This document shows positions 72-8,194 of a stretch of 64,000 nt of DNA, in pieces. Made by a program: the position numbers and the translations under genes. The first letter of the stretch is position 1. Each line of letters starts with the position of its first letter. A model generated the notes under the pieces. It saw only the letters and a list, made by a program, of their open reading frames with translations. It searched no databases and was not told the DNA's origin. The stretch lies in IMG/VR virus record IMGVR_UViG_3300035698_016731, positions 15,775 to 79,774 of that record; one strand, written 5' to 3'. The DNA comes from a virus.

Positions 72-3000
72 ATGAGTAGAGACTTTTGCCACCTACACTT
101 GCATGACGAGTTCTCTATACTGGATGGTCTTGGACATCCCTCAGACTATGCAACGAGAGCTAAAGAACTTGGGCAGAAATACATCGCTCAGACTAATCAT
201 GCGAGTATGGGTGGTCTTTATAGATTCCATATTGCAGTTACTAAAGAGAAAATAAAACCAATTCTTGGACAAGAGTTATATTATGTAGATTCCCTAGAAG
301 ATAAAGGAGCAAGACGGCACCATCTCATTCTTCTAGCTAAGAATCAGAAAGGCATAGAAAGTCTCAACTCTCTTATCACCATAGGTAATGAACCAGAAAA
401 CTATTATCGTAGACCTCGTGTAACTATAGATATGATTTGTAAATACTCTAAGGGTTTAGTCTGTGCTACAGCTTGTGTTGCTGGTCCATTGGGAAAAGAA
501 AATGGAGAAAAGGATTTTAGAAAACTACTTGAGTGTTTTGCTGAAGATTTATATTTAGAGATTCAACCTCATGTTTGGAATGAACAATCTCTCTTAAATC
601 AACAAGCCTATAGATACTGGAAAAAATATGGAAGTAAAGTAATAGCCACTAATGATTGTCATTATGTATTAAAAAAGCATGCTACTTCTCATGAAGTCCT
701 CTTAGCAATACAAAGAAAAGCTAAATGGGGTGACCCAAAACGTTGGAAGTTTGACATCAGAGACCTCTATCTTAAAAGCCGAGAAGAAATGTTAGATGAC
801 TTCCAAAGAATGGAAAACAAATTTAAGACAGATTTACCTAATAAATTCTATATAGAATCCCTAGAAAACACCATGCTAGTGGCGTCATCGTGTCACTTTA
901 AGCTTAAAGACCTGCCTCTTAACCTTCCTAGTGTAAACGACTCGGATTGGACTGATGATGAGCTTTTTAAGAAGAAATGTCTTCAAGGATATAAAAAGAG
1001 ATTTGACTTTAAAAAGGACAGTCCTGAATATTTGAGATATAAGAAAAGATTACAATTTGAAATAAGAACCATTATTGAAGGTGGTTTTAGTAGATATTTT
1101 TTAATAGTTCTGGATTTAGTAGAGTGGGCAAGGCGAGAGGATATAATGGTTGGACCAGGCAGAGGTTCTGTGAGCTCATCCCTAGCCAGTTATTGCTTAG
1201 GAATTTCTGGTATTGACCCAATTCACTACGGACTTATATTCTCTCGCTTCATATCTCCAGACCGAATAGACCTTCCAGATATTGATATTGATTTTGAAGA
1301 TAGGAAAAGAGATAGAGTTGTGACCTATCTTACTGAGAAGTATGGAGAGAAGTGTGTAAGTGGAGTAATTACTTTCGCTAACATGAAGGGCAAGATGGCT
1401 ATTAAAGATGTAGCTAGGGTGTTTGATGTTAGCATAAAGGAAACAAATGATGCAACAAAAATGATAGTTACTCGGAGTACAGGAGATGCAAGAGCAGATT
1501 TCTCCATAGATGATAGCTTTAAAGTATTTGAAGAATGCATAAAATATAAAAAGAAACATCCAGAAGTAATTAAACACGCCACAGTTTTAGAAGGAAATAT
1601 CCGACAAGTCGGTCAACATGCTGCAGGAGTTGTTGTCTCAGGAGATGAGATTGTGCCGAAACGTGCAGCCATTCTTCGAGGTTCTAAGGGTAAGATACTC
1701 TGTTATGATAAAGATGACTTAGATAGAATTGGATTGATGAAGTTAGATATTTTGGGATTAAGAACCTTGAGCATACTTAATGACGTACAACATTTGGTTA
1801 AAGATAGACTTGGAGAAGTTCTGGACTTTGAGAAGATAGATGTAGGAGATGAAGAAGTGTTGAAGATGTTTGGAGAAGGAGACACTATTGGAGTCTTTCA
1901 ATTTGAATCTAAGGGTATGGCTAAACTTTGTAAAAGATTAGCTCCAATAGAAAATTTTGATATGTTAATTGACGCTAATGCTCTCCATAGACCTGGTTGT
2001 ATTAAGTCTGGAACTATGAGCAGATATGAAGATGTAAGACATGGACGCAAAAAACCTGACTATATTATTCCTTATATGAAAAAGATAACTGAACCAACTC
2101 GTGGTATAGTTCTTTATCAAGAGCAAATTATGCAAACTATGGTTTTCCTTGCAGGATTTGGTTGGAAAACTACTGACATGATTAGAAAAGTGGTTAGTAA
2201 AAGTAAGGGAGATGAATTGTTTGGAAAGTTTGAAGAAGAATTTGTAGCGAAGTGTAAAGAAAAAAGAAACATTTCTCCAAAGCTATCCAGAAAACTTTTT
2301 AAAGAGATTCAGACTTTTGGAAGTTATGGATTTAACAAATGTATATGTGGTGATACTAAAGTGTTAAGGGCATCTTGGTACAAAGGAAATAATGCATATT
2401 CTATTAAACATTTGTGGAAAATAGTTAATAATATAGAATATGCGAAAGAAGTCCATGGTCTTTCTTTAAGAAGCAAATTAAGAACTTATGGATATGGTTT
2501 TATATTAAGTCAGCATAAAAATGGAAGAATAAAACCTAATAAAATTATAGATATATATTATAATGGAGAGAAAGAAGTATATGAAATAGAAACTGTTGGA
2601 GGAGATTTTGTAGAAGCTACTTTAGACCATAGATTTTTAACAAGTAAAGGTTGGAAAAAATTAGAAGATATTGAAATAGGAGATAAAGTAGCCTTTATAG
2701 GAGACTATGAAAAATCTAATATCAGATATAACTTTACCAATGGAAATTTTAAGTTAAACTCTAAAAAAGGTAAAGAAGGATTTCAAGAAAAACCTAATGG
2801 GCAGTCTGTTAAATTTCAGAGGATAAGAAAAGATTATCTTAAAAAGTTTGGAAATAAATGTATGGAATGTGGGAAGGAACACAAAAGAATAGAAACTGCT
2901 CACTTAGATGGAAATAGATTAAACAACAAGAAAAGTAATTTAAAAAATCTTTGTCCAAGGTGTCATAAAGTTCATGATTATTCTTTAGGAAGGAAAAAGA

Positions 3001-4643
3001 AATGGGACAAAGGCAGACCTACTATATACAAAAAAGTCAAAAGCATTAACCTTTCTGGAATGAAAGATACTTATGATATAGAAATGGAATCTCCTAATAA
3101 CAACTTTATAGCTAATGGATTTGTTAGCCACAACTCTCATGCTTGTACCTATTCTCTTATAGGATTCTGGTGTATGTATTGTAAAATACATTACCCCACT
3201 ATCTTCTTTAAAGCTGTTATAGAGAATACAAATGCTGATGATAGGTTATGGGAAGCTTTTGAAGGCATGAGACAAATGGACATTAAGACATATATGCCTG
3301 ATGTAAACCATTCTCAAAGGAAAATAGACTTTTATGAAGATGGACTGATGTTGGGATTTGCTTTAATAAAAGGATGTGGAGATAAAGCAACTGAGAATAT
3401 GTTAGGAGAAAGAGAGAAAAATGGACCATTCAAAGATTTTCAAGATTTCCTAAAAAGAGTCAACAGAAGAGTAGTCAATAAGAGAGTAATAGAAGCTATG
3501 GCTTCAGTAGGAGCTTTTAAATGTTGGTATCCTAATCAACGGCAACTTATGGAAAACCTTGAACAAGTCTTAAAGGGAAAGTATGAGTGGAAGAAGGAGT
3601 ATGACTTCTACTCTGAGAAACAAACTCTTATGATTATAAAGAAACTTATTCCATATATTTCTGGAGCTAATAAGATATATTTCTTTGACAGGCTCAGAAG
3701 TATGTTAGGAAGTTTGAAGATAGCTGAAATAAATTTCAAAAGAGCCAATAGGAATTATACAGTTATCGGAGAGCTTACTGAAGTGAAGTATAGTTATGCT
3801 GAAGCTCATAGTGGTAAGAAGATAGGTGGATTTGTAGACCAACAAAATCTCGGAAATGTATATGGGAATCTATATGATGGAGAAGAGTATATAGTTGGCT
3901 GGTTTGATGGAGACATAAAAGCTAAACATAAAGATGAAATAGAAAGTATTAAATCTAATGTTATCTGCAGTAAGTTAGAAAATCTTGCTCATAAAACAAG
4001 AGTAGCTATCCGAGATTATGCTATCGTTGATGGCATTCAAGATATAGATATGATTCAACGATTAAAAAAGATAACTAAGTTTAGAATATTGAGAAGGAAA
4101 ATAAAAAAGAGAGTAGATTGTACAAGTTGTAATAATTGTAAATTGAGAGAGACTTGCACCAACCCAGTTCCCTATTATTGTAGCAGGGATAAATTCTATG
4201 GATTTATAGTAGGAGAAGCACCAGGTAAGAATGAAGATGCAGGAGGAAAACCATTTATTGGAATGGCAGGAAGAGAGTTAAGAAATATGTTCGACAAGTG
4301 TGGAATGAGTGCGAGTGATTTCTTTATAACTAATGCTGTAAAATGTCGTCCACCTAGCAATCGAAAACCTTATAAGAATGAAATAGGAAAGTGTGCAAGG
4401 TTATGGTTAGAAAAGGAAATAAAAACCAACAAGCCAAAGGTAATACTAAGCTTGGGAAATACTCCTTTGTATTTCTTTACAGGAAAGGAGAGTGGTATAC
4501 TTGAGATGAATGCAAAGTATGAATGGAACTATGACTATGAGTGTTTTGTAGTCTATTCAATTCATCCTGCAATGGTGTTGTATAACTCTGAGAACAGAGG
4601 GATGTTGAGAGAAAGTGTAACTTTACTAAGTCAGTTTATATAA
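72..4643 (+). CDS. dnaE: DNA polymerase III alpha subunit (family C) with intein and C-terminal family-4 uracil-DNA glycosylase domain
   Basis: PHP motif HLHLHDEFSILDG, GPGRGS, catalytic PDIDIDF, KLDILGL, YQEQIM, GFNK/SHA split by an intein; C-terminal CxxC...GEAPG...KCRPP...HPA. Confidence 0.96.
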   Translation: MSRDFCHLHLHDEFSILDGLGHPSDYATRAKELGQKYIAQTNHASMGGLYRFHIAVTKEKIKPILGQELYYVDSLEDKGARRHHLILLAKNQKGIESLNSLITIGNEPENYYRRPRVTIDMICKYSKGLVCATACVAGPLGKENGEKDFRKLLECFAEDLYLEIQPHVWNEQSLLNQQAYRYWKKYGSKVIATNDCHYVLKKHATSHEVLLAIQRKAKWGDPKRWKFDIRDLYLKSREEMLDDFQRMENKFKTDLPNKFYIESLENTMLVASSCHFKLKDLPLNLPSVNDSDWTDDELFKKKCLQGYKKRFDFKKDSPEYLRYKKRLQFEIRTIIEGGFSRYFLIVLDLVEWARREDIMVGPGRGSVSSSLASYCLGISGIDPIHYGLIFSRFISPDRIDLPDIDIDFEDRKRDRVVTYLTEKYGEKCVSGVITFANMKGKMAIKDVARVFDVSIKETNDATKMIVTRSTGDARADFSIDDSFKVFEECIKYKKKHPEVIKHATVLEGNIRQVGQHAAGVVVSGDEIVPKRAAILRGSKGKILCYDKDDLDRIGLMKLDILGLRTLSILNDVQHLVKDRLGEVLDFEKIDVGDEEVLKMFGEGDTIGVFQFESKGMAKLCKRLAPIENFDMLIDANALHRPGCIKSGTMSRYEDVRHGRKKPDYIIPYMKKITEPTRGIVLYQEQIMQTMVFLAGFGWKTTDMIRKVVSKSKGDELFGKFEEEFVAKCKEKRNISPKLSRKLFKEIQTFGSYGFNKCICGDTKVLRASWYKGNNAYSIKHLWKIVNNIEYAKEVHGLSLRSKLRTYGYGFILSQHKNGRIKPNKIIDIYYNGEKEVYEIETVGGDFVEATLDHRFLTSKGWKKLEDIEIGDKVAFIGDYEKSNIRYNFTNGNFKLNSKKGKEGFQEKPNGQSVKFQRIRKDYLKKFGNKCMECGKEHKRIETAHLDGNRLNNKKSNLKNLCPRCHKVHDYSLGRKKKWDKGRPTIYKKVKSINLSGMKDTYDIEMESPNNNFIANGFVSHNSHACTYSLIGFWCMYCKIHYPTIFFKAVIENTNADDRLWEAFEGMRQMDIKTYMPDVNHSQRKIDFYEDGLMLGFALIKGCGDKATENMLGEREKNGPFKDFQDFLKRVNRRVVNKRVIEAMASVGAFKCWYPNQRQLMENLEQVLKGKYEWKKEYDFYSEKQTLMIIKKLIPYISGANKIYFFDRLRSMLGSLKIAEINFKRANRNYTVIGELTEVKYSYAEAHSGKKIGGFVDQQNLGNVYGNLYDGEEYIVGWFDGDIKAKHKDEIESIKSNVICSKLENLAHKTRVAIRDYAIVDGIQDIDMIQRLKKITKFRILRRKIKKRVDCTSCNNCKLRETCTNPVPYYCSRDKFYGFIVGEAPGKNEDAGGKPFIGMAGRELRNMFDKCGMSASDFFITNAVKCRPPSNRKPYKNEIGKCARLWLEKEIKTNKPKVILSLGNTPLYFFTGKESGILEMNAKYEWNYDYECFVVYSIHPAMVLYNSENRGMLRESVTLLSQFI
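2340..3134 (+). mobile_element. Intein (265 aa) carrying an HNH endonuclease, inserted in DnaE
   Basis: Starts CICGDT right after YGFNK; block B ATLDHRFLT; ends NFIANGFVSHN followed by Ser of SHA; internal CMECG...AHLDGNRLNN...NLKNLCPRCH. Confidence 0.93.
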
Positions 4644-4659
4644 AAAAGGGGGTGAATGA

Positions 4660-4857
4660 ATGAGAGTATTTGTAATCTTTGAATTTCTAATAGTTATTGG
4701 TCTACTGTGGTTATCAGCTAACATAGTTCAATATGCTTGGTTCAAAGAGTTGAGAAGTGGGAGATTCTTCTGCTTATCAAACAAGTGGATAAGGGAAGAT
4801 GATGAACGACTAGAACAAAAAATCAAAGACAAAAAGAGGAGAAAAAAAGATGAATAA
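4660..4857 (+). CDS. Small membrane protein
   Basis: Hydrophobic N-terminus, GGGGGTG RBS, overlaps next gene. Confidence 0.65.
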   Translation: MRVFVIFEFLIVIGLLWLSANIVQYAWFKELRSGRFFCLSNKWIREDDERLEQKIKDKKRRKKDE

Positions 4858-5845
4858 AGGATTTATATTTGCACTTGCTGGAGTTATTGTATTGTTCTTT
4901 TTACTTTTCACTTTCGGCTGGGTTAATATTGACCCAACAGAAGTTGGTGTAGAAGTTAATAAGATAATGGGAAAGGTTGACCCTGAACCTCTCGGAGTTG
5001 GTTATCATTTCTTTAATAGATTCAAAACTGATGTTGAAGTCTATAAGGTAGCCTCTCGTGCATTTCCTGGTGATGTAGACAAGAGTGAAGAGGAAGAAAA
5101 ATATACTCTTGAACTTAAAACTAATGATGGACAAAGAGTATCAGTAGACCTTACTATAATTTATGCCCTTAAATCTAAAGAAGTACCTGTACTTCATGCT
5201 AAAGTAGGAAGGAATTTTGAAGATGAAATACTTCTGCCTCAAGTTCGCAGTGAAGCAAGATTAGCCATAGGTTCTTACTCTGCAGAGGAAATCTATCAAG
5301 GTAAGGTTCGAGATGAAATACAGCAAGGTATTAAAGCTAAACTTATTGCAGCTTTAACATCTCACCCAGCTTTCATCGTTCAAAGTGCTTTAATGAGAGA
5401 TTTCCAATTTAGTCCAGCTTTTGAGAAAGCTATTGAGTCTAAGAAACTTGCTGCTCAGCAGGTTGAGATAAACAAGAATAGAGCATTAGCTCAGGAAGAA
5501 GAAGCAAAAAGAGTAGAAGCTATAGCAAGAGGAAAGAAACTACAAGCTATTCAAAATGCAACAGGTGTTGCTGAGTCAGTCAAAATTAATGCTGATGCAG
5601 AAAGATATGCATTAGAACAAAAAGCTATTGGTAGTTTAGCTATCTACAAAGCTGATGCAGAAGGAAAGAGACTTCAGGCTGAGGCTCTTGGTGGTGGACA
5701 CAATGTAGTAGCTCTCAAGTTTGCTTCTACTTTACCTAGAAACTTGAAGATTATTGCTGTTCCAGTAGGGAAAGACTCTACAAGTATCATGGACTTAAAT
5801 GGAGTATTCAAAGGCATGTTCACTAGTCCAAAAATAGGTGAATAA
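4850..5845 (+). CDS. SPFH/band 7 (prohibitin-like) membrane protein
   Basis: N-terminal TM, GVEVNK, LGVGYHFFN, TNDGQRVSVDLTIIY, FSPAFEKAIESK, AEA-type coiled coil. Confidence 0.9.
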   Translation: MNKGFIFALAGVIVLFFLLFTFGWVNIDPTEVGVEVNKIMGKVDPEPLGVGYHFFNRFKTDVEVYKVASRAFPGDVDKSEEEEKYTLELKTNDGQRVSVDLTIIYALKSKEVPVLHAKVGRNFEDEILLPQVRSEARLAIGSYSAEEIYQGKVRDEIQQGIKAKLIAALTSHPAFIVQSALMRDFQFSPAFEKAIESKKLAAQQVEINKNRALAQEEEAKRVEAIARGKKLQAIQNATGVAESVKINADAERYALEQKAIGSLAIYKADAEGKRLQAEALGGGHNVVALKFASTLPRNLKIIAVPVGKDSTSIMDLNGVFKGMFTSPKIGE

Positions 5846-5846
5846 G

Positions 5847-6122
5847 ATGAAGAAAGGTTTTACTTTGATAGAAATCATAATTATAATTATGGTAATGGTA
5901 ATACTTGTTGCAGTTGCTATTCCTAAATTTGCAGAATTACGCAAGAGAGCTGAACAGACAGAGAAGAAGAGAAGAAAAGCTGAACGATGGGGCAACTCCT
6001 TATCTGATAAGGTGTCTGATATTACTATGGAGTATGACAATTCAACTAATCAAATAAAATTCACTGTTCACAAAGTGGATGGAAGCAGAAGTAGAGGGTA
6101 TCTATATGTTCATGATGAATAA
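5847..6122 (+). CDS. Type IV pilin/pseudopilin-like protein 1 (class III signal peptide)
   Basis: MKKG|FTLIE + hydrophobic helix + AIPKF; ATG 5847 follows AGGTG RBS. Confidence 0.85.
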   Translation: MKKGFTLIEIIIIIMVMVILVAVAIPKFAELRKRAEQTEKKRRKAERWGNSLSDKVSDITMEYDNSTNQIKFTVHKVDGSRSRGYLYVHDE

Positions 6123-6423
6123 AAGGAAAACTGGTTTTACTTTAGTTGAAGTAATGATAGTTATAGCTATATTAGGTTTACTTGTTGCTATTGTAGCACC
6201 TGCTATTATGAAGGCTAAAGAAAAGACTGAGAACCACATTAATTATGATAAGAGAATAGAAAGATTCTCAAAAAGGTATGGGTATGAGATGGGAGATGTG
6301 AGAATCTTTCTTGAAACTTACGATTTTACCAACAAGGACTTTATGGAATCAGGTGTATTAAGAGGACAGTTTGAGAGATGGTGTGATGGAGAAGAAACTC
6401 AATTTCTCAAAAGAAGAGATTAA
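6112..6423 (+). CDS. Type IV pilin/pseudopilin-like protein 2
   Basis: NKRKTG|FTLVEVMIVIAILGLLVAIVAP; likely start 6112 or 6115 rather than 6079. Confidence 0.88.
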   Translation: MMNKRKTGFTLVEVMIVIAILGLLVAIVAPAIMKAKEKTENHINYDKRIERFSKRYGYEMGDVRIFLETYDFTNKDFMESGVLRGQFERWCDGEETQFLKRRD

Positions 6424-6440
6424 CCAAAAAGGAGGGTACC

Positions 6441-6728
6441 ATGGAAGATGAAGTAAAAAAAGAAGAAGTCCAAAAAGAAGGAGCTTTTATTGTTTCTCTA
6501 AAAAGGAACAACAAGAAGATTCGGTATATCCGATTCATTAGAAACCAAAATCTTGTAATAACTTGCTTAGACCACATTAAACATCTATGGGATTTTGTAT
6601 ACAAAGGACAGATTATTCATTGTTCCAATGAGAAAGTTTTTATCAAGGGAATAGCTAACATACTAAAGATAGATAAAGTGTATGTTAGTAGGTCAATAGT
6701 CCAAGATATTAAAGAAGAAAAAATTTAA
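6441..6728 (+). CDS. Hypothetical protein
   Basis: AGGAGG RBS, ATG, co-oriented. Confidence 0.7.
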   Translation: MEDEVKKEEVQKEGAFIVSLKRNNKKIRYIRFIRNQNLVITCLDHIKHLWDFVYKGQIIHCSNEKVFIKGIANILKIDKVYVSRSIVQDIKEEKI

Positions 6729-6763
6729 TATTTCTTAGGACTTTTCAGGTGTTTTTCTTTAAT

Positions 6764-6773
6764 ATATAATAAA
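6764..6773 (+). promoter_or_regulatory. Putative promoter element ATATAATAAA
   Basis: Intergenic, directly before an AAGGAG RBS; same core occurs at 15097 and 60547. Confidence 0.45.
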
Positions 6774-6784
6774 GGAGATAAATA

Positions 6785-7294
6785 GTGAACATAACTAACA
6801 TCGCAAGACGCATTAAGAAGCTAATTCTCAGCATGGACATCAGCAGAGAAGAGTATGATATTATTAAGGTTGCAAGTATTGACGAAAGAGCATTGAATGA
6901 AGCTTGTATACACCATCCTCGCTTGTATGCTTTTTGGGCTACGATTTTCCGTATCTCTGAAAGTAATATGAACAAGGCTGAGTTTGAGCTTGATAAGTAT
7001 AAAGCTGAACTCGACAGTAAAATTAGAAAGAAATGGGAAGGTGAGAAGTTTACAGAAACCAGTATTAAGAATGAAGTATTGAGAGATAAAGGCTACCAAG
7101 AATTGCAATTAGAATTACTGGACAAGCAAGAATCACGAGGGATTTTTAAAGCTTTTGTTTCCTCTTTGGAACAGAGAAAGGATATGCTCTTTACTCTGGC
7201 TGCAACAGAGAGAAAAGAAATGGAGACAAAGATTGAGCTACAGTCTAAAGCTGTACAAGAGTATTACAAGAACAAAAAAACCAAAACCAAATAA
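6785..7294 (+). CDS. UvsY-like recombination mediator
   Basis: Helical IDERALNEAC..HP..YAFW...KFTETSIK...LEQRKDML pattern; sits before SSB and RecA. Confidence 0.6.
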   Translation: MNITNIARRIKKLILSMDISREEYDIIKVASIDERALNEACIHHPRLYAFWATIFRISESNMNKAEFELDKYKAELDSKIRKKWEGEKFTETSIKNEVLRDKGYQELQLELLDKQESRGIFKAFVSSLEQRKDMLFTLAATERKEMETKIELQSKAVQEYYKNKKTKTK

Positions 7295-7306
7295 GGAGGG
7301 TGTTGT

Positions 7307-8194
7307 ATGGGCAAATTGAGCAGAGATGCAATTAAAAAGCGTTCAAAAGAACGGCATGGTGGGGGAGAGTTCTGGAAACCAAAAGATGGGAAGAACTTTG
7401 TAAGGCTTCTTCCCCCTGCTGGTGAGTTAGAAGAACCATGGAAGGAAGTTTATATCCACTATGATGTAGGAGAAGAAAGTACATCTACTGTATGTCCTTT
7501 TAAGAACTACAAGAAACGTTGTCCTATCTGTTCTGAAGTTAGGAAGCTGTGGAAGGGTGATGATGATGAAAGAGCACTAGCTTCTCGAAGAGGAGCTAAA
7601 CGTCAATATTTCACTCCTATGATTGACCTTACTAACGAAGATGCTGGAATACAAGTTTGGCGTCACGGAGTTAGTGTAGTTAATCAGTTACTTGATTTAT
7701 TTGATGATGATGATGATGAGGATAGAGTAGTTGACTTTACTAGCATTAAGAATGGCAATAAAGTAATAGTAGTGCGCCATCAGAAAGCTAAGAACACTGA
7801 ATTTATCGACTACAATATTCGCCTTGGCAAATCTCATGTAGTAGAAGATTGGAAGAAGCTAAAAGAAGAAATGCCTGAATTAGATAAGTATGGCATCAGT
7901 CTTAGCTTTGAAGAAATTGAGGCTTTGATTAATGGAGACAAAACTTCTTCTGCTCCTCCTCCTGCTGATGATGATGGAGAAGATGATGATGAGGTAAAAA
8001 GAAAACCTGTTGAGGAAGAGGATGATGATGATGATGACCCACCTTCAAGTAAGAAAAGACGTGATGATGATGATGACAATGAAGGTCTTGATGAAGAAGG
8101 TAAGGATGAGGAGTTAGATAAGGAAGATGATGATGGAGATGATGATGACCCACCAAGAAAGTCTTCATCTAAAGTAAAAAGGAGAAAAAGATAA
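7307..8194 (+). CDS. T4 gp32-like single-stranded DNA-binding protein
   Basis: FWKPKDGKNFVRLLP, His plus CP...CPIC Zn motif, long Asp/Glu-rich tail. Confidence 0.8.
   Translation: MGKLSRDAIKKRSKERHGGGEFWKPKDGKNFVRLLPPAGELEEPWKEVYIHYDVGEESTSTVCPFKNYKKRCPICSEVRKLWKGDDDERALASRRGAKRQYFTPMIDLTNEDAGIQVWRHGVSVVNQLLDLFDDDDDEDRVVDFTSIKNGNKVIVVRHQKAKNTEFIDYNIRLGKSHVVEDWKKLKEEMPELDKYGISLSFEEIEALINGDKTSSAPPPADDDGEDDDEVKRKPVEEEDDDDDDPPSSKKRRDDDDDNEGLDEEGKDEELDKEDDDGDDDDPPRKSSSKVKRRKR

Follow-up and report, generated by a model that had tools for sequence, protein, structure and literature searches.

The 64,000-nucleotide stretch of DNA analysed here (the window) covers bases 15775–79774 of the IMG/VR record IMGVR_UViG_3300035698_016731, a linear viral contig of 79,774 bases with an estimated completeness of 71%. 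It contains a block of four + strand genes in which an SPFH (Band-7) gene is followed by two tandem genes for pilin-like proteins. The first gene of the block (4660–4857) encodes a small single-pass membrane protein of 65 residues; it was recognized as an open reading frame (ORF) with a Shine–Dalgarno run, and its homologues also stand upstream of SPFH genes. Next comes the gene for the SPFH/Band-7 protein (4850–5845; 331 residues; PF01145 and phrog_200), which is prohibitin-like and has one N-terminal transmembrane helix, and then those for pilin-like A (5847–6122; 91 residues) and pilin-like B (6106–6423; 105 residues). Both of the latter match PF07963 and TIGR02532, with the ATG codons at 5847 and 6106 as their best starts. 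The junctions between the four genes overlap or abut (−8, +1 and −17 bases, in order) and each start is preceded, at 7–12 bases, by a Shine–Dalgarno-like purine run. As the junctions are this tight and there is no terminator-like site on the + strand in 4300–7400, the arrangement fits a single transcript.

A begins with the leader MKKG (cleavage at MKKG↓FTLIE) and has Phe+1, Glu+5 and Pro+22; B has a basic leader of ten residues (…KRKTG↓FTLVE) and Phe+1, Glu+5, Gly+14 and Pro+22. The hydrophobic N-terminal α-1 segment with Pro+22 is thus present in both proteins, and Gly+14, a type IVa trait, is present in B. Against PF07963 (cut-off 21.2 bits) B scores 36.7 bits, while A falls slightly short of it as a trimmed protein, with 20.3 bits, and reaches 26 in a six-frame search; against TIGR02532 (cut-off 16.3) both pass, with 30.4 for B and 17.4 for A. 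In the six-frame search the two genes match PF07963 with E values of 8.5e-11 and 8.5e-7, and they are the only two matches to this family in the whole 79.8-kb record, so that the pair is not due to chance. A comparison with solved structures using phmmer aligned mature residue 1 of PilA, PilE, GspG and the Geopilin PilA-N to residue 5 of A and residue 11 of B, which coincide with the predicted cleavage sites; Thermus PilA5 is also among the solved pilins that align in this way. The named pilin equivalogs of NCBIfam (PilA, GspG/H/I, ComGC/D/E/F and Ppd) do not reach their cut-offs with either protein, and their matches are confined to the first 35–50 residues (e.g. GspG with 37.7 against 88.85 and ComGC with 29.3 against 75).

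A preliminary description, made from the letters of this stretch alone, had placed two pilin-like ORFs with class III signal peptides behind an SPFH gene and a small transmembrane gene, had noted that no pilus ATPase, platform or peptidase accompanies them and had proposed PF07963 as a check. The ORFs lie where it placed them, the motifs and profiles agree with it, and the absence of pilus machinery extends to the entire contig, in which Peptidase_A24, T2SSE and T2SSF have no match. One of its refuting cases was that the closest homologues would be intact host pilins; this is not so, and no host pilin is related to the tail of either A or B. Peptidase_A24 was also searched for, as the sole machinery family, in five related viral records, including a 215-kb phage that is 100% complete, and none was found. 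The lack of a peptidase on the contig and on this complete relative supports the view that A and B must rely on the prepilin peptidase of the host.

The source virus, known from metagenomes of salt lakes, is an uncultured tailed phage, and the structural genes on the contig are those for a portal, a head protease, a capsid protein, a tape measure and a terminase. The four-gene block lies on the + strand in a replication/recombination block (DnaE polymerase, gp32-like single-stranded DNA-binding protein, RecA, Mre11 and Rad50), between the DnaE gene and the gp32 and RecA genes. A role of the genes in lysis, with membrane proteins of the holin or spanin type, has to be weighed, as A weakly matches an Rz-like spanin PHROG (E 0.068) and has a topology resembling that of an inner-membrane spanin. 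However, the genes are in the replication/recombination block and not near an endolysin, a lipoprotein partner is absent and a prepilin motif is not a spanin feature; we therefore reject this explanation, on position and missing partners, as highly improbable.

Downstream of B, and separated from it by 17 bases with no terminator-like site, is a + strand ORF of 95 residues without a family match (6441–6728); the next promoter-like site after B lies at 6742–6770. The ORF could be transcribed together with the four genes as their final member, and its place in the module is uncertain. Judged by eye, its C-terminal half resembles a helix–turn–helix. The DnaE-type polymerase at 72–4643 has an intein-like insert with an HNH-like motif and a uracil-DNA glycosylase-like extension at its C-terminus. 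PADLOC returned nothing meaningful, and a nucleotide search found no isolated phage related to the contig. The region of A and B recurs without differences in contigs from four salt-lake runs dated 2017–2019. A segment of 37 bases at the start of the pilin helix (6134–6170) is also present in other contigs of salt-lake runs, one of which has Ser instead of Gly preceding Phe; the flanks of the shared segment differ, and other pilin-type genes of the community therefore have an almost identical N-terminal coding sequence.

The SPFH gene, its partner and the probable host

The SPFH protein scores 87.1 bits against PF01145 (cut-off 23.6; E 1.9e-24) and matches phrog_200 with an E value of 3.5e-34. 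With a domain score above the Pfam cut-off and an N-terminal hydrophobic helix that is visible in the sequence, it has both the domain and the membrane anchor of an SPFH/Band 7 protein, and its nearest solved structures are prohibitins (E 1e-4). Homologues at 60–70% identity are very numerous. At 60–68% identity they are found in 48 species-representative genomes, mostly metagenome-assembled genomes of Candidatus Omnitrophota with some labelled Planctomycetes, on contigs of up to 401 kb and amid ordinary bacterial genes. A quick maximum-likelihood tree places the phage copies within the bacterial ones, and the phage gene is best described as a host-derived auxiliary gene.

In each of the five related viral contigs, and in 37 of the 133 loci that were fetched, the SPFH gene is immediately preceded by a homologue of the 65-residue partner. 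Several bacterial SPFH homologues are longer (380–400 residues) and have a similar extra helix fused in front; the phage, with its separate partner, thus carries a two-piece copy of the host scaffold, a core gene of Candidatus Omnitrophota, with the partner as the detached N-terminal piece. No Pfam family, NfeD included, scores above its cut-off with the partner, which is too small for NfeD. It has a Lys/Arg-rich tail and, at the start of its helix, a Phe-x-x-x-Glu motif that is invariant in six of six phage copies; the bacterial fused forms inspected lack the Glu residue. In one locus (L141, 2503–2736) the partner reads Met-Arg-Ile-Phe-Thr-Leu-Phe-Glu, which resembles a leaderless pilin start. 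The idea that the partner is a leaderless pilin-like helix was dropped, as its predicted topology is opposite to that of a pilin. Prohibitin, HflK/C and stomatin–NfeD scaffolds share with this pair an N-terminally anchored SPFH protein and a small membrane partner encoded just upstream in an overlapping frame. They differ in that HflK and HflC are two adjacent paralogous SPFH genes, where a single SPFH gene is present here, and in that the stomatin partner has an NfeD domain, where the partner here represents the first helix of the host protein, encoded separately.

Candidatus Omnitrophota is probably the host, an assignment of moderate strength. The G+C content is 30–38% in the phage and 41–49% in the bacterial SPFH loci. 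Among five Omnitrophota genomes with an SPFH homologue, four have Peptidase_A24 and all have PF07963 proteins (9–18 per genome), most of them in reading frames of 117–240 residues.

Pilin-like genes beside SPFH genes in other phages

The synteny search that the preliminary description had suggested shows the link between SPFH and pilin-like genes to be real and recurrent, in related viral records, in individual loci and in Aeromonas phages. Four related viral records (12, 26, 107 and 215 kb) each have a single PF07963 match within ∼1.2 kb of the SPFH gene, upstream of it in one record and downstream in three; a fifth record has no such match. The layouts vary: L006 has a pilin-like gene of 97 residues and L007 a B-type gene of 118 residues downstream of SPFH. 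The gene of 108 residues downstream of SPFH in L032 (4291–4617) combines a prepilin start with a UBA_4 domain (PF14555, E 2.2e-11); a UBA-like domain would be an odd one to find outside the cytoplasmic membrane. In L005 (3597–3956) a pilin-like start lies upstream and runs in frame, without a stop codon, into the small SPFH partner, which retains its own ribosome-binding run and ATG. In L003 a mini-gene of 39 residues (5009–5128) comes right after SPFH. It aligns to the upstream junction of A and to the helix-coding part of B, followed by an 8-base deletion, and looks like a recombined and truncated remnant of A and B. Common to all of these genes are the N-terminal signal and the helix; the heads vary from a sheet to a helical domain, a UBA_4 domain or none.

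For a comparison of loci we kept those with at least 1.5 kb on both flanks, removed duplicates and counted as phage-type those with a separate small partner. A pilin-like gene stands beside SPFH in six of 15 phage-type loci and in none of 45 host-type loci, for which the hypergeometric probability is ∼1e-4, an upper bound on significance given that the loci are related. Loci with a linked pilin-like gene occupy at least two positions on the SPFH tree, probably four, and sister loci differ in whether the gene is present; gain and loss have therefore been recent. In the searchable literature this linkage was not found apart from a table of Pfam hits in a 2006 paper (PMC1524935).

That table (Table 3) lists the pair of Aeromonas T4-like phages, ORF098c (SPFH) and ORF097c (N-terminal methylation motif), as Pfam hits only (PMC1524935). 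In phages 44RR2.8t and 25 a gene of 72–75 residues reading MKG↓FTLIE directly follows the SPFH gene; phage 31 has a gene identical to the 72-residue one of 44RR2.8t, and in AhFM11 an SPFH-sized gene is followed in the same way by a gene of 152 residues. The Aeromonas pilin-like gene is conserved in 38 records and the pair is kept in two genera of Straboviridae. Adjoining tk in 44RR2.8t (L012:9998–11472) and in phage 25 (L013) is a conserved trio of genes for an 87-residue soluble protein, an SPFH ‘lipoprotein’ and the 72–75-residue pilin-like protein, and the trio is followed by a gene for an integral membrane protein. The order of an SPFH gene with a short pilin-like gene directly after it is the same as here. 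The Aeromonas SPFH protein belongs, however, to a different subfamily, with no similarity to the present one by BLASTP (E 0.096); the small gene upstream encodes a soluble protein rather than a membrane partner, and the pilin-like gene, of which there is only one, has a tail that contains Cys. In other phages with an SPFH gene, a pilin-like gene is absent or lies in another part of the genome, so the two are often, though not always, paired. The Aeromonas phages offer a culturable system for testing it.

This patchy distribution, with six of 15 phage-type loci occupied, is what might be expected if the pilin-like genes were decaying or neutral accessory genes of a variable region with no current function, and the truncated hybrid of L003 and the orphan tail of A could be read in the same way. 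Several features speak against decay: the frames are intact, Shine–Dalgarno runs precede them and their stops and starts overlap; genes that have diverged strongly still share the motif; the contigs of the four salt-lake runs show no difference in sequence; and the same pairing, with an unrelated SPFH protein, occurs in the Aeromonas phages, where the gene is conserved. We consider loss of function very unlikely as an account of these genes.

Heads and the membrane anchor

The C-termini of A and B had been described beforehand as very small and unrelated. Small heads they are; the impression that both are orphans does not hold, as the tail of B falls into a family of at least 57 representatives. 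For A, an AlphaFold2 model from the single sequence (pLDDT 86.9) has a helix at residues 7–55 and strands at 56–64, 69–76 and 81–87, and predicts a minimal lollipop in which a long helix carries a three-stranded antiparallel sheet. With this model Foldseek and VIA-align gave generic long-helix or small-sheet matches only, and a word-indexed search of 5.8 billion proteins gave no relatives of the tail. The model of B (pLDDT 71) has a helix at residues 13–58 and two short helices, without a sheet. In a typical pilin head, by comparison, the C-terminal half of α-1 packs on an antiparallel sheet of about four strands.

The tail of B (window 6223–6420) can be aligned to the pilin-like gene of the 215-kb phage. 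A profile of this domain retrieved 57 representative proteins of 92–163 residues (P0125–P0180) with the consensus GYDxxDVxVF...DFxxSxxLRxQYExFxxG, many of which have a hydrophobic C-terminal tail rich in Gly, Ala and Met. The domain has no match in Pfam or PHROGs and was not found in the five Omnitrophota genomes, in GenBank phages or in IMG/VR. Relatives of A or B were not found in IMG/VR contigs, nor were relatives of B or of P0128, a member of the B-domain family, found in GenBank phages; two IMG/VR scans with alignments built from B-domain relatives added nothing new. The C-terminal domain of B thus defines an uncatalogued family of ∼57 representative small membrane proteins. A prepilin start was seen, among the members examined, only in B, the L007 protein, P0126 and P0131; P0125 begins inside the helix.

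Most members of the family have an ordinary N-terminal transmembrane helix, which suggests that the pilin start may be an interchangeable anchor and not the active part. On this explanation the prepilin start would be one membrane anchor or export signal among others, and A and B would be small effectors on the outer face of the cytoplasmic membrane, partners or clients of the SPFH protein that might, for example, act on a membrane protease of the host or on the integrity of the membrane; pili would play no part. The genes are linked to SPFH and never to pilus genes, and the UBA_4 and helical heads are not pilin-like. The fusion in L005 also fits, as it joins a pilin-like helix to the helix of the SPFH partner, and by the positive-inside rule the product would be a two-helix hairpin. 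An ordinary anchor would not, however, need Gly-1, Phe+1, Glu+5 and Pro+22, which every pilin-like gene retains although all else varies; a charged Glu residue within the membrane carries a cost that only its use would justify; and the predicted helix-plus-sheet lollipop of A resembles minimal pilins. A role as mere anchored effectors is possible, and it is the main competitor of the interpretation given below, although we doubt it.

Candidate effects on host filaments

The interpretation that we tentatively favour, while holding it to be somewhat short of probable, is that A and B tamper with a pilus or pseudopilus of the host for superinfection exclusion. The four genes would form an envelope module of the early region that consists of a two-piece, host prohibitin-like SPFH scaffold and two phage-specific mini-pilins. 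The mini-pilins would insert in the cytoplasmic membrane so that their heads are exposed on its outer side and their N-termini lie in the cytoplasm, and the host prepilin peptidase would cleave them after Gly-1. The intact α-1 helix, with Phe1, Glu5 and Pro22, could then allow entry into the type IV filament pathway of the host, either that of type IV pili or that of the type II secretion pseudopilus, where a tiny non-native head in place of the normal pilin head would alter the filament display or disturb assembly. The SPFH scaffold would lie in the same membrane patch and would probably organize or stabilize the small helix proteins. Jammed, capped or merely re-decorated filaments are all candidate outcomes. 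The preliminary description had seen in A and B decoy pilins that jam or cap the filaments of the host, possibly organized by the SPFH scaffold, an interpretation that is supported in part. It is with the prepilin signal and the α-1 helix that a pilin contacts the peptidase, the platform and the core of the filament. Entry into the filament pathway is favoured because it is precisely this part, with its Glu residue, that is conserved among the pilin-like genes.

Several observations weigh against tampering with filaments. The closest relative of the locus, L003, with an SPFH protein that is 85% identical, retains only the 39-residue hybrid; a sister of L032 is without a pilin-like gene; L004 has lost it. 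The L003 hybrid and the loss in the sister of L032 imply that the pilin-like genes are dispensable. The prevalence of ordinary transmembrane helices in the B-domain family belongs here too, and B could be explained just as simply by an activity at the membrane's outer face that does not involve pili. The assignment of the host rests on one gene, that for SPFH. Finally, deletion of all nine SPFH genes of Pseudomonas aeruginosa left swarming, which depends on type IV pili, unchanged (PMC13086221), so that no cellular link between SPFH proteins and pili is known.

The fusion in L005 suggests a more specific arrangement, in which an SPFH cage holds prepilin-type helices. The SPFH protein and the mini-pilins would then be a distinct phage module for membrane takeover that has arisen at least twice, here with an Omnitrophota-type prohibitin-like SPFH protein and in Aeromonas T4-like phages with an unrelated one; the cage might capture or wall off the prepilin peptidase or the pilus platform of the host, or might shield the decoys from membrane proteases. 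We regard this as unlikely on present evidence; if true, it would be a mechanism without a described counterpart.

The preliminary description had stated that known phage inhibitors of pili mostly act on PilB/PilC and do not mimic pilins, which is out of date in view of P-FimU and of truncated PilA-like proteins (PMC12952977). P-FimU, from F10-like Pseudomonas prophages, is built into the pilus and blocks the adsorption of tip-binding phages (PMC12952977). Truncated PilA-like proteins of ∼60 residues have been reported from six virulent Pseudomonas phages, and a role in phage exclusion has been proposed for them (PMC12952977; Sztanko et al., Cell Rep 2026). The ratio of minor to major pilins also alters pilus dynamics (PMC13249403). 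Like A and B, these mimics are phage genes with type IV pilin starts that need the machinery of the host, their known or proposed effect is to keep out other phages by way of the host pilus, and some of the PilA-like proteins are cut to little beyond the N-terminal helix. P-FimU is a copy of a complete host minor pilin with a demonstrated function, whereas A and B share only their first ∼35 residues with any pilin and show no full-length resemblance to a minor or major pilin of the host. A and B, at 91 and 105 residues, keep small heads, and the version in L003 has 39 residues. A and B are further set apart by their unrelated mini-heads, by forming a tandem pair, by their place in a replication block of lytic type and by a different probable host phylum. 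They are also coupled to an SPFH gene, and SPFH is not mentioned in PMC12952977. Of the solved relatives, the Geobacter-type PilA-N (Geopilin domain 1), a cellular pilin, scores highest with A and second highest with B. It resembles them in its very small size and in consisting largely of the α-1 helix; it differs in having a partner, PilA-C, in a pilus gene cluster, and the similarity is limited to the N-terminal helix.

P-FimU provides the precedent for a further explanation, in which the mini-pilins would be placed in working host pili, at the tip or in the shaft, and would mask the receptor of competitors while pilus function is kept. The mechanism has been demonstrated for P-FimU and proposed for the PilA-like proteins of virulent phages (PMC12952977), and the high variability of the heads among related phages is what competition between phages would predict. 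It is hard to reconcile with the lack of resemblance to any host pilin past ∼35 residues, P-FimU being similar to the host minor pilin throughout; the heads are far smaller than the Omnitrophota pilin frames of 117–240 residues, and the linkage to SPFH is left unexplained. We therefore think such replacement quite unlikely for A and B.

Phage pilin mimics as a kind are already known. To our knowledge, P-FimU is the only one of them that has been tested experimentally. The present locus adds a probable host in Omnitrophota and a scaffold in two pieces that derives from it, a tandem of pilin-like genes whose mini-heads differ, an uncatalogued family to which the domain of B belongs, a pilin-like start fused in frame with the SPFH partner, and the finding that phage-type loci differ from host-type loci in having pilin-like genes. 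Of the pilin, this mimic keeps only the signal and the helix, joined to a mini-head that can be swapped; its tie to a membrane scaffold consists of genetic linkage in two unrelated phage groups and of one gene fusion. Phages commonly use type IV pili as receptors, and these pili power motility, adhesion and DNA uptake; in tiny epibiotic bacteria such as Omnitrophota they probably serve contact with other cells. For phages of Omnitrophota, the present locus provides a first clue to the host and an auxiliary gene. The functions of bacterial SPFH proteins are, as far as we know, largely unknown; if the pair works together, the mini-pilins would be a concrete client for these proteins and the module would represent a new viral way to rewire the cell surface.

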